Source of the DNA: Octopus sinensis
Taxonomy: Eukaryota
DNA: 64,000 nucleotides
Assembly (NCBI RefSeq): GCF_006345805.1
Contig: NC_043001.1
Coordinates: forward strand, 10,664,001-10,728,000
Direction: 5' to 3'
In this document: piece by piece, positions 41,558 to 59,735 of the stretch
How the letters are laid out: the number at the start of each line of letters is the position of its first letter
How positions within the stretch are numbered: position 1 is the first letter of the stretch
Program-made: the position numbers and the translations under genes
Notes under the pieces: generated by a model
Told to the model about the DNA's origin: nothing
The model's database searches: none
The model's input: only the letters and a program-made list of their open reading frames with translations

Positions 41558-41607
41558 TTTGTCAAAATATTTTCGTCGCTAAAATCCGCGACCTGTTCAC
41601 TGACAAA
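41558..41607 (-). ncRNA. Hammerhead ribozyme with G3-C8 compensatory core
   Basis: tttgtca GTGAACA g gtcgc-ggatttta-gcgac GAA AATATT T tgacaaa: 7-bp stem I, 5-bp stem II, palindromic stem III. Confidence 0.7.
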
Positions 41608-42639
41608 GTCCGTGCTGCATCTAAGAAAAGTACAGTTAGTTCGTCATATAAATGTACGTATGTATGTGTGTATGTATGCATACATGTGTGTATGTATGTA
41701 CGTATGCATGTACGCACATACGCCTGTGTATGTATGTATGTATGTATGTATGTATGTCTGTATATGTATGTATGTATGTATGTATTATGTGTGTATAAGC
41801 ACGCACATACACTCTATAAAACATAAAGTTATAAACCTGTAAGCGATGGATGGGTGTAGAGTGACCACTCATCACAACGCTATCAAATTTCAACTCCCTA
41901 CGGCCGAGGCTAGAAAGTGAATTTATGACGCTGCTCACAGAACTATACCCTAAAATCTATTATCAGATTTTTATCTCTATATCACACAGAACTAATGTTT
42001 TACTATTGTTCGTATGTATGTATGTATGTGCGTATGTATGTATGTATGTATGTATGCATGTATGTATGTATGTATGTATGTATGTATGTATGTATGTATG
42101 TACATACGTACGCATGTGCGTATGTATGTATACGCGCTCGTATGCATGTGCCCATGTATGTGTGTGTGTACATGTACGTGCGTATGTACGTGTGTATGCC
42201 CATACGTAGGTATGTATGTATGTTTGTATTCATGTGCTACGTATGTATGTGGGTGTCTAGGAGAATGGGCAGATGTGTCCGTGAGAGTGTGTACATGTGT
42301 ATGTGTATGTGAACGTATGTCCGTGTACTGGCATGTGTCCGTCCAAGTTGTGTACATGACTGTTACTTTGCTGAAGGCTGTATACATATTTACATATATG
42401 TTTGTATAGACGCACACACATATATATATATATGGCTGCATATATATATATGTGTGTGGGTGTGTGTTTGTTCCTCTCATCATCGTCTAACCGTGAATGG
42501 ATACAACGCCTAGGTGCAACTGTTCGTATCAAACAACGTCTGCTCATACCGTTGTATATAACTGCACATACGCATTGCAACCTGTATGTAAGGACTAAGG
42601 TGAAAGGGAGAGAGAGGGGGGGTTATAGAATAGTCCTTC

Positions 42640-43330
42640 TGAATGGGATCTGGATGTTATTCCATTCGGACTTTCGGTTGAGATAGGTTTGTATTCTTGT
42701 ATACAAACAGCTTCTGTGACCTGTCTCAACATTGCATCGGTGGGATGTGTAGATAGGATGTTCAACTTAAGCTCCCCTAAGGATCCCTTGTGGCAGTCTA
42801 CAGCAGTTGGGTAGAAGATGGGTTTGGCTTCCTTTCACTGTAGTTGTCCAGGTGTTCTTTGAACCTATCATTGATGCTTCTAGAGGTCCTCACCTATATA
42901 TGACTCGGGGTTAGCCACGCAAGCTCCTCCTGGCACTTAATCTGGTATACAGTGCCCTTGTTTTTACAATTTACGTGTGGATTTGTCGACACACTGCCAC
43001 AATTACTCTGACAGGTGATTCTATCAATGGATATGATCTGCATAATGCCGATTTGATAGTCCTACCTGTCTTTTCTACAACTTTAACTTTTAGGCCGTAG
43101 TGCGCAGGACTTTTTTGAATGCCTTACTTACTCGTTCTTAAGGTGGCGTCAACGAACATCACTCCGTGAAATCTCCTGTTATCGTACAAAGTAACGTTTC
43201 TCATCTTTTTGTGGGTGTCCCTCTCTAACCTATTCCAGAACTTGTTGCGGTACAGGGGGCATATCCGTTTCGTCGTTCCCTAGAATGCGTTCGAATCTAG
43301 CTTTCGCTCCTTTGTACACCCTGACTCTAT
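42640..43330 (-). pseudogene. Penelope-like element linker and GIY-YIG endonuclease remnant
   Basis: PLYRNKFWNR, GVMFVDAT, GLKVKVVEKTGRTIKSAL, CKNKGTVYQIKC..YIGE-TSRSINDRFKEH, RQVTEAVCI, LNRKSEWN; frameshifted. Confidence 0.85.
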
Positions 43331-43355
43331 CGTCTTGTGTGTATCCGGAGCGTTG

Positions 43356-43427
<72 letters not shown>

Positions 43428-43589
43428 ATATATATATATTATATATGTATATATATATATATATATATATCTATATATATAGATTATATATATATATATA
43501 TATTACAACGCGTGCGCACACACATATAATATATGTAAATATATATGTTATATAGATATAAGATATTGAATATATTAAATTCGCGTAGT

Positions 43590-45374: not shown

Positions 45375-45612
45375 ATATAATATTAATTAGAGACAAAACC
45401 ACTATTTTGCAAATCAAACAAAGAAAGACATAATAACTTAAAATAGAATAGAAGACCTGAATCCACCTGATGAATGTCCTGAGAAGAGACATGAAACAAT
45501 TGTAGTGGCGAATATAATTTTATTTATTTATATTAAAATTTTTTTATGTATGGATTAAGTCTTTCTCGTTGTTGATTGCAAAATAGTGGTTTTGTCTCTA
45601 ATTAATATTATA
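45375..45612. mobile_element. PLE-like short element with ~58-bp inverted arms enclosing a hammerhead
   Basis: Arms 45375-45433 and 45555-45612 (taattagagacaaaaccactattttgcaa / ttgcaaaatagtggttttgtctctaatta). Confidence 0.8.
45463..45508 (+). ncRNA. Canonical minimal type I hammerhead ribozyme
   Basis: ccac CTGATGA atgtc-ctgagaaga-gacat GAA AC aatt GT A gtgg; predicted cleavage after A45504. Confidence 0.85.
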
Positions 45613-57343: not shown

Positions 57344-57389
57344 GACACCTGAAGAAGGCTGGAGGGTATATCAGCCGAAACGTTGTGTT
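57344..57389 (+). ncRNA. Minimal type I hammerhead ribozyme
   Basis: gacac CTGAAGA a ggctg-gagggtatat-cagcc GAA ACGT T gtgtt, within repeat 57292-57486. Confidence 0.75.
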
Positions 57390-57831: not shown

Positions 57832-59160
57832 ATGAGCCAGTCTAACATCAAACAAGGCATCTTTCAAGGTGACTCCCTCTCCCTATTACTCTTTTGCATG
57901 GCACTGATCCCACACTCAAACGAACTAAGTAACACCAGGTATGGGTTCAAAATGTACAATATTATAGTAAATCATCTGTTTTATATGGACGATCAGCAGC
58001 TGTTTGCTAGGAATGACAAAGAGCTAATATGGCTGCTAACTACTGTTAAAGAGTTCAGCAATGGCATCAGGATGGATTTTGGCCTTGCTAAGTGTGCTAA
58101 AGCAACAGGCAAGCTCAGACAAACAGCTGCCATTAAATTAGATACCGATCTTACCATCAAGGAGCTTGAGCCACAAAGAAGCTATTAATACCTGGAGATA
58201 AACGAAGAAAATGGTACACAATATGCTACTATGAATGAAAAAATAAGAAAGGAGTATTACAGAACAATACGACCTATACTAAAAACTAAACTCGACTCCA
58301 AAAATTGCATCGCAGCCATTAATACCCCAGCACTTCCAGTAGTCCAATACAGTTTTAAAATCATTAACTGGAATCTTACAGAGCTTCAAAGCATGGACAG
58401 GAATACAAGAATATTACTAACATTTAAGAACACGCACCATCCAAAAACAGACGTTGATCGTCTGTACCGACTTAGAAGTAATGAGGGAAGAGGAATGATG
58501 AGGCTAGAACTGTGCTATAAGACTTCCACAATAGCAATAAACAGGTACTTCTATAGTACAGATGATTGGGTGCTGCGGCTTTTGTGCAAATACGAAAGCA
58601 GCAAAAAATTACATTCTATTGTCAAGGAAGCTTGCAAATTCGCAAGGGAACTTGGCATAAATCCTGAATTGGATGAAAAACCTGAAACCACTGATACGAA
58701 AAAAGAAAACGGATCAAACAGATTGCAAAAAGAACGGGCAGAAACAAATTGAGGAGCAGTGGAGCCAGAAACCCCTGCATGGACAGTATATGCTTCGAAG
58801 TCGAAATGCTGATGTAAACCAAGCAACAGCGACCAGTGGCTGAGAAGCTCAGAACTGAAAGGAGAGACTATAGGTTTCATAATGGCAGCACAAGATCAAA
58901 ACGTTCTTCAAAACGGTTCTGACCCTAAATGCAGATCTGCGATACATTTGATGAAACAATAGACCATTTCGTCTCGGGATGTCCTGTGCTGACACCTAAC
59001 GAGTACAAAAATCACCACGATAAAGTAGGACAGTATTTACATTGGAAAATGTGTAAGCATCACCAGATTAGCACTTCTGCTTGCTGGTGTGAACATCATC
59101 CTGCGCCAGACGTTGAAGGTAAAAATGTCACTATCTTGTAGAATTTTCCAGTCAACACCG
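57832..59160 (+). pseudogene. R4/Dong-like non-LTR retrotransposon ORF remnant (RT, zinc knuckle, start of RLE)
   Basis: GIFQGDSLS, HLFYMDD, HHPKTDVDRLY, CDTFDETIDHFVSGC..EYKNHHDKV..LHWKMC; in-frame stops and frameshifts. Confidence 0.9.
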
Positions 59161-59164
59161 ACAG

Positions 59165-59735
59165 CGGAATTTGAACTCAGAACGTAAAGACAGACAGTAT
59201 TTCTCTACTACCCACAAGGGGCTAAACACTGAGAGGACAAATAAATACAGACAAACGGATTAAGTCGATTACATCGACCCCAGTGCGTAACTGGTACTTA
59301 ATTTATCGACCCCGAAAGGATGAAAGGCAAAGTCGACCTCGGCGGAATTTGAACTCAGAACGTAACGGCAGACAAAATACCGCTAAGCATTTCGTCCGGC
59401 GCGCTAACGTGTCTGCCAGCTCGCCGCCTTTAAGTTAATTTTGATATTGTTTGAGCCCGGCGTGCTAACGATTCTGCCAGGTTACCGCCTTAGGCTCAAA
59501 CAATATCAAAATTAACTTAAAGGTGGCGAGATGGCAGAAACGTTAGCACGCCGGGCTAATTGCTTAGAGGTATTTCGTCTGTTGTTACGTTCTGAGTTCA
59601 AGTTCTGCCGAGGTCGACTTTACCTTTCATCCTTTTGGAGTCGCTAATTTAAGTACCAGTTGCATACTGGGGTTGATCTAATCGATTGCCCTACTTTCCA
59701 AAAATGTCGAGCCTTGTGCCTTGAGTAGAAAAGAA
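59165..59735. mobile_element. Divergent (head-to-head) SINE family A pair around an inverted 28-bp spacer
   Basis: SINE(-) 59165-59430, SINE(+) 59521-59735; inverted segments 59430-59457 / 59494-59520. Confidence 0.85.

Follow-up and report, generated by a model that had tools for sequence, protein, structure and literature searches.

Is a hammerhead ribozyme with an inverted tertiary core pair a damaged copy of an ordinary motif, or can such a core be the regular state of an animal lineage? The question is raised by positions 41558–41607 of the DNA from Octopus sinensis analysed here (a stretch of 64,000 nucleotides, below called the window), where the minus strand reads as a minimal type-I hammerhead with G at position 3 and C at position 8. 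The pair between positions 3 and 8 positions the general acid of the hammerhead. To our knowledge, the inverted form of this pair is known only from engineered mutants, where it acts as a partial rescue.

Read on the minus strand, the 7-nt 5' arm of stem I (41601–41607) leads into the core box of positions 3 to 9 (GUGAACA, 41594–41600, with G3 at 41600 and C8 at 41595), followed by one extra G (41593), as in published motifs (PMC4209133). Stem II, which has 5 bp and an 8-nt loop that varies by subfamily, occupies 41575–41592. G12-A13-A14 and the palindromic stem III (AAUAUU, A15.1 to U16.1, the predicted dimer helix) lie at 41566–41574, U17 is 41565, and the 3' arm of stem I is 41558–41564. 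Stems I (7 bp) and II flank the core in the type-I order. All of U4, G5, A6 and A9, G12, A13 and A14, the A15.1-U16.1 pair and H17 are present, as are the extra base between positions 9 and 10.1, the G10.1-C11.1 pair and the short palindromic stem III; C3 and G8 of the literal CUGANGA core are both replaced, by bases that can pair Watson–Crick as G-C. The sequence agrees with the earlier note on the strand, both stems and the exchange of C3 and G8, and its predicted cut after 41565, that is, between 41565 and 41564, fits hammerhead numbering.

The minimum-energy fold calculated with RNAfold consists of stems I and II, lengthened by a G3·U17 wobble; this predicted wobble could favour an inactive fold. 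The folding z of the motif is −1.65, and folding energy taken alone is weak evidence. We used a descriptor that accepts a hammerhead with any Watson–Crick 3-8 pair and set the quality bar at a stem I of at least 7 and a stem II of at least 5 pairs: in 0/100 dinucleotide shuffles of the window was the quality of the motif reached, with six loose hits. That standard searches would miss the motif had been anticipated and is the case in Rfam, which misses it at the gathering threshold and whose 12 matches up to E=10 include no hammerhead family.

Rfam also leaves out the two canonical-core hammerheads of the same window, both on the plus strand. The first (45463–45510, CUGAUGA) has an 8-nt palindromic stem III and is probably a repeat of another Penelope-like family. 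The second (57344–57388, CUGAAGA, with an ACGU palindrome) is a minimal motif ~480 nt before broken non-LTR reverse-transcriptase frames on the same strand (57832–58750), with a further fragment at 59725. The window also holds at least nine occurrences of a short interspersed repeat of ~210 bp (1894, 3350, 16297, 22353, 25113, 39070, 51430, 59211 and 61911).

The motif had been placed in a separate insert of ~200 bp (41420–41630). This part of the earlier description did not hold: sequence shared among copies continues from the motif through (CATA)n tracts into the GIY-YIG remnant, and what looked like an insert belongs, as its 3' end, to a single uninterrupted 5'-truncated Penelope-like element of probable Neptune/Nematis type (41418–43356, minus strand). 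Its 3' untranslated region, or pseudo-LTR, with the (CATA)n tracts spans 41418–42622 and ends at the longer of the family's two 3' ends. At 42623–43356 lies a broken, frameshifted 3' part of the ORF, comprising the end of the reverse transcriptase, a CX3CxxC linker and the GIY-YIG endonuclease. The (TA)n target repeat is found both at the 3' end of the element (41397–41417) and at the 5' truncation point (43357–43470). With the stop ~1,015 nt upstream of the motif, the hammerhead does sit, as first described, about 1 kb downstream of the GIY-YIG remnant and on the same strand, and it has the same position behind the ORF in 12/12 loci retrieved by the ORF stretch. A first look with the 211 bases around the motif gave 981 candidates in the genome, the best 40 of which are 99–100% identical.

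In one full-length copy (L064) the repeat with the hammerhead stands also before the ORF, and here the AUG that opens the ORF (41506–41508 on the minus strand of the window) comes 92 nt after G3 and 56 nt after the predicted cut. In L064 each of the three reading frames through the motif meets a stop ahead of this AUG, and we therefore rejected coding constraint as the cause of G3 and C8. The ORF of the element is open in two sister copies, L032 and L042. We recognised its domains (GIY-YIG and the CX3CxxC linker) by eye in the translated ORF against the description in PMC8557442; Pfam and PDB returned no hit for the element ORF, and a weak RVT_1 hit for relatives only. Among named proteins the best relative (56%) comes from Octopus vulgaris, and 99% matches to that protein exist in the host genome. 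Selenocysteine read-through as in Naiad elements was also considered and rejected: the ORF pieces of the window stayed apart when TGA was read as U. Judged from the sequence, the element resembles in layout and (TA)n target the Neptune or Nematis elements described by Craig (2021; PMC8557442) and probably belongs with them, the likeness being a C-terminal GIY-YIG domain after a CX2-5CxxC linker together with (TA)n targets. The swapped hammerhead core is a difference from those elements.

To what extent is the swapped pair shared? A genome-wide pattern with positions 3, 7 and 8 left free gave 4,182 matches, with none for the reversed control and none in viral contigs, and 3,849 of the 4,182 carry both G3 and C8. 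This set, family A, establishes G3-C8 as the family consensus that the earlier note had proposed; both the stems and the 3-8 pair co-vary among related lineages. Subfamilies of family A differ in loop II and are ~81–99% identical to two reference copies.

Within one pattern frame we counted the copies that depart from the consensus: 281 have a change at C8, 116 at G3 and 81 at a C of stem I. Sorted by hand, the first 100 of the 281 changes at C8 lead to G (43), T (43) and A (14), and the first 100 of the 116 changes at G3 to A (56), T (23) and C (21); the 81 changes at the stem I C lead to T (64), A (10) and G (7), and at flanking C/G sites we counted 83 C-to-T, 36 C-to-A and 20 C-to-G changes. 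The return of C8 to the canonical G thus amounts to ~120 copies versus 7 at the control stem C, and G3-to-C is somewhat raised as well (~24 copies). An old, transposed G3·G8 intermediate lineage, hinted at by L070–L074, was rejected: 43 G8 copies are scattered over all subfamilies and share no flank marker. The sole common trait among the G8 copies is an A at the extra position, seen in 5/36.

The inverted pair is also found in a second lineage, E, which has the core GUGACCA, a 7-nt loop II, stem III AAUU and, like family A, U17. With positions 3 and 8 free, 43 of its 59 matches have both G3 and C8 by hand count. Lineages A and E are ~68–73% identical where they can be aligned, and in an unrooted tree of 46 chosen rows, calculated with the core left out, A and E together form one side of a 100/99 branch. 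We take E as an older sister lineage of A, and the simplest reading is that G3-C8 had a single origin in A and E. That G3 and C8 should both last through the A–E split has about even odds by chance.

Homologous hammerheads of the same genome display C-G, U·G, U-A and G-C at positions 3 and 8, as well as C·A in one lineage. Family B, which we found via its protein and not via the motif, carries its hammerhead at the same place in the element, with C3-G8 and with C at position 9 in 9/9 rows. Its stem II is GUCAC/GUGAC and its stem III AGAACU, and compensatory changes are seen in stems I, II and III. In family B (L083:5364–5411 and other loci), a sister Penelope-like family, the ORFs are open, stem I carries a bulge and stem III is not palindromic.

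An old group of hammerheads, C, gave 152 matches (control 0). In its first 30 loci positions 3 and 8 are U·G in 13, U-A in 11, C·A in three, C-G in two and U·U in one. The group stands beside Penelope-like ORF remnants in 1/30 of the first loci and in 2/40 further loci, 20 of these 40 having been chosen largely because position 3 is C or G. In a tree of 103 rows we distinguish lineages with a majority of U·G (two groups), U-A, C-G (D, four rows) and C·A; the last is a small clade with C3·A8 in 5/6 rows, in a sample enriched for C3. This small old lineage (L111, L158, L160, L161 and L163) has seemingly multiplied with C3·A8, and its neighbours have U3-A8 and U3·G8. For groups C and E, the search patterns themselves prescribed several positions in the stems and the core.

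Across ten lineage representatives, 91.5% of cells are paired and 6/13 pairs have changed on both sides; the covariation score was reached by 0/500 shuffles, a result that we take as support for a conserved hammerhead fold and not as a probability, the representatives being hand-picked and related and several positions fixed by the patterns. Because the stems of related hammerheads co-vary, the fold is, on this comparative evidence, kept.

The known systems closest to the motif are the Penelope-like minimal type-I hammerheads described by Cervera & de la Pena (2014; PMC4209133), with which it shares the type-I order, the extra base between 9 and 10.1, G10.1-C11.1, the short palindromic stem III, the place in the pseudo-LTR and the thousands of 5'-truncated copies. 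Penelope of Drosophila virilis likewise has an intron-end-like site just before stem I (PMC4209133). The difference lies in the 3-8 pair, which here is G-C: among the 56 motifs of Fig. S3 in PMC4209133, found with search patterns that fixed the core, 53 are C3-G8, two U3-A8 and one U3·G8, and none is G3-C8. The published Penelope-like hammerheads cut poorly in vitro (PMC4209133). Natural U3-A8 cores (Perreault 2011, PMC3088659; Schistosoma Cercyon, PMC4209133) are likewise natural compensatory changes at the tertiary pair, and U3-A8 occurs in group C too; however, U3-A8 can be reached by transitions via a U·G wobble, whereas G3-C8 needs two transversions and an unpaired intermediate.

The same pair has been engineered as C3G/G8C, where single mutants are dead and the double mutant is partly rescued, both in standard hammerheads (PMC8495972) and in the anole element PAc (PMC11167929); in the octopus it is natural and lineage-wide. 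The PAc hammerhead cuts only with the protein of its element (PMC11167929). A G3-C8 variant is mentioned, as 'data not shown', to be more active with G17 than with C17 (PMC3884650). Our full-text literature search returned no natural G3-C8 hammerhead, and none turned up in term look-ups of PMC6155905, PMC10085705, PMC11014351 and bioRxiv 10.64898/2026.07.22.740005; a large survey of such variants (Lünse 2017) and supplements lay outside the reach of the search and may contain it.

In the reading that we consider likely, 41558–41607 forms the hammerhead in the pseudo-LTR of a Penelope-like retrotransposon present in many copies; the 3-8 pair is G-C throughout the family, and the RNA is predicted to be cut slowly after U17, likely as a dimer or assisted by the protein of the element. 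Transcription would begin ~20 nt ahead of G3 and continue through copies arranged in tandem. The AAUAUU palindrome would then pair two hammerheads, the core of one cutting the other, by analogy with published systems (PMC4209133, PMC6765202); a nearest-neighbour model favours the dimer over two monomers by just 0.6 kcal/mol. In the core, G3 would pair with C8 in the manner of C3 with G8, and a U at position 17, as in the two G3 lineages, would prevent G3 from forming an inactive pair with C17, although U17 is also common in C3 relatives. Cutting would be slow or late, since inserted copies come mostly from uncut RNA, apparently primed ~90 or 150 nt past the point of cleavage. The new 5' end made by a cut would lie 56 nt ahead of the ORF AUG, and a role in processing or in translation control is our guess.

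The ends of inserted copies bear on whether RNA was cut before insertion. We surveyed 59 copies that contain the motif, the set being drawn from the top of the list of matches. The 5' ends of 35/59 fall 16–27 nt before G3, 19 fall 5–11 nt before G3, a class that is partly an alignment edge effect, and five lie further up. At the 3' side there are two clusters of ends, +122 to +128 (23 of the 59 copies) and +179 to +186 (30 copies), which correspond to the internal priming sites and the 'tail' of PAc (PMC11167929). There is no common upstream exon among the 59 copies. In the window the main 5' cluster maps to 41620–41639 (minus strand), the likely 5' end of the template RNA, with a branch-point-like pentamer, a pyrimidine run and AG; it may be an intron end or a transcription start. 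The YAG at the cluster site is kept as TAG or CAG between subfamilies. Whether the cluster marks an intron end or a start site, the motif-containing copies came from uncut RNA.

Copies of family A truncated at the cut itself would be the complementary footprint. Raw counts of copies joined to foreign DNA are 43 at the cut site, 43 at +21, 77 at +4 and 10 at −5. After removal of intact copies and of a class with 7-base microhomology (we inspected 30 loci in each set, or 10 for −5, and assessed the others from the match listing), ~27 junctions are left at the cut and ~16 at +21, before correction for anchor match rates of 29/63 and 22/63. Genome-wide, the cut site does not stand out from control positions as a peak of 5' truncation in family A. 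Dead cores are not enriched among inserted copies either: G5 is changed in 63 and A6 in 30, versus 81 for A7, to which family E contributes ~13. Inverted copies are often joined via the 7-base complementarity of the stem I arms (~14/43 matches, including L185, L186, L192, L195, L197 and L204), and such junctions are a template-switch signature.

The earlier note had taken the double change in itself as an argument for selection on catalysis. Here we part with it: two changed bases pair by chance one time in four, and the case for selection therefore rests on the whole set of compensations. The C3·A8 lineage, the C9 of family B, the prevalence of copies from uncut RNA and the missing footprint all count against strict catalytic selection. 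They are also what one would expect if the fold were kept as a structure, serving for instance as a start site or as a site of protein binding in the RNA of the retrotransposon, with cleavage vestigial and the 3-8 pair loosely kept for folding; the lineages with C3·A8 and C9 did multiply, and insertion in vitro did not need cleavage, as described for PAc (PMC11167929). However, U4-G5-A6, GAAA, U16.1 and H17 are needed for catalysis, not for structure, and family B, in whose discovery the motif played no part, retains them; in group C, moreover, U16.1 is present in 64/68 rows though the pattern left it free. We regard conservation of structure alone as unlikely, if far from negligible.

A second alternative takes the pair to be a neutral accident: positions 3 and 8 would have drifted in a founder and hitch-hiked to thousands of copies, with their pairing a coincidence. 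The chance of one in four speaks for this idea, position 8 is unusually changeable in comparison with G3 and the stem C, and the copy number reflects few founders, not independent events. Set against it are a Watson–Crick or wobble 3-8 pair in 6/7 lineage groups, in four different forms, and the compensations in three stems, and we hold such an accident to be improbable. Chance resemblance within repetitive DNA, for which the modest folding z and the lack of an Rfam hit could speak, is dismissed, as it is contradicted by the shuffles, by a place in the element that is the known position of Penelope-like hammerheads (PMC4209133) and by homologous canonical-core motifs at the same place in related elements (families B and D).

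The reading that we prefer, a slowly cutting pseudo-LTR hammerhead, can be carried further, to a claim on which we are evenly balanced: an active natural inverted G3-C8 hammerhead would have been kept through at least two successive animal retrotransposon lineages, in a genome that also holds the series C-G, U·G, U-A, C·A and G-C. Cleavage in trans within dimers, or a weak need for cutting, would let the pair pass through unpaired intermediates, and position 8 returns to G far above control bases. On this claim, whole high-copy ribozyme families would be missed by core-fixed searches.

The motif is well known and lies where such motifs are known to lie; the swapped core is a variant of it, and the surprise is a moderate one. 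Still, a natural family of ~3,800 copies and an older sister lineage show that animals tolerate the inverted pair for long periods, and that ribozymes are undercounted where a search is fixed on CUGANGA or UUGANAA. With related elements that have open ORFs and five states of the 3-8 pair, the octopus genome offers a natural series for testing whether the rate of cleavage matters.
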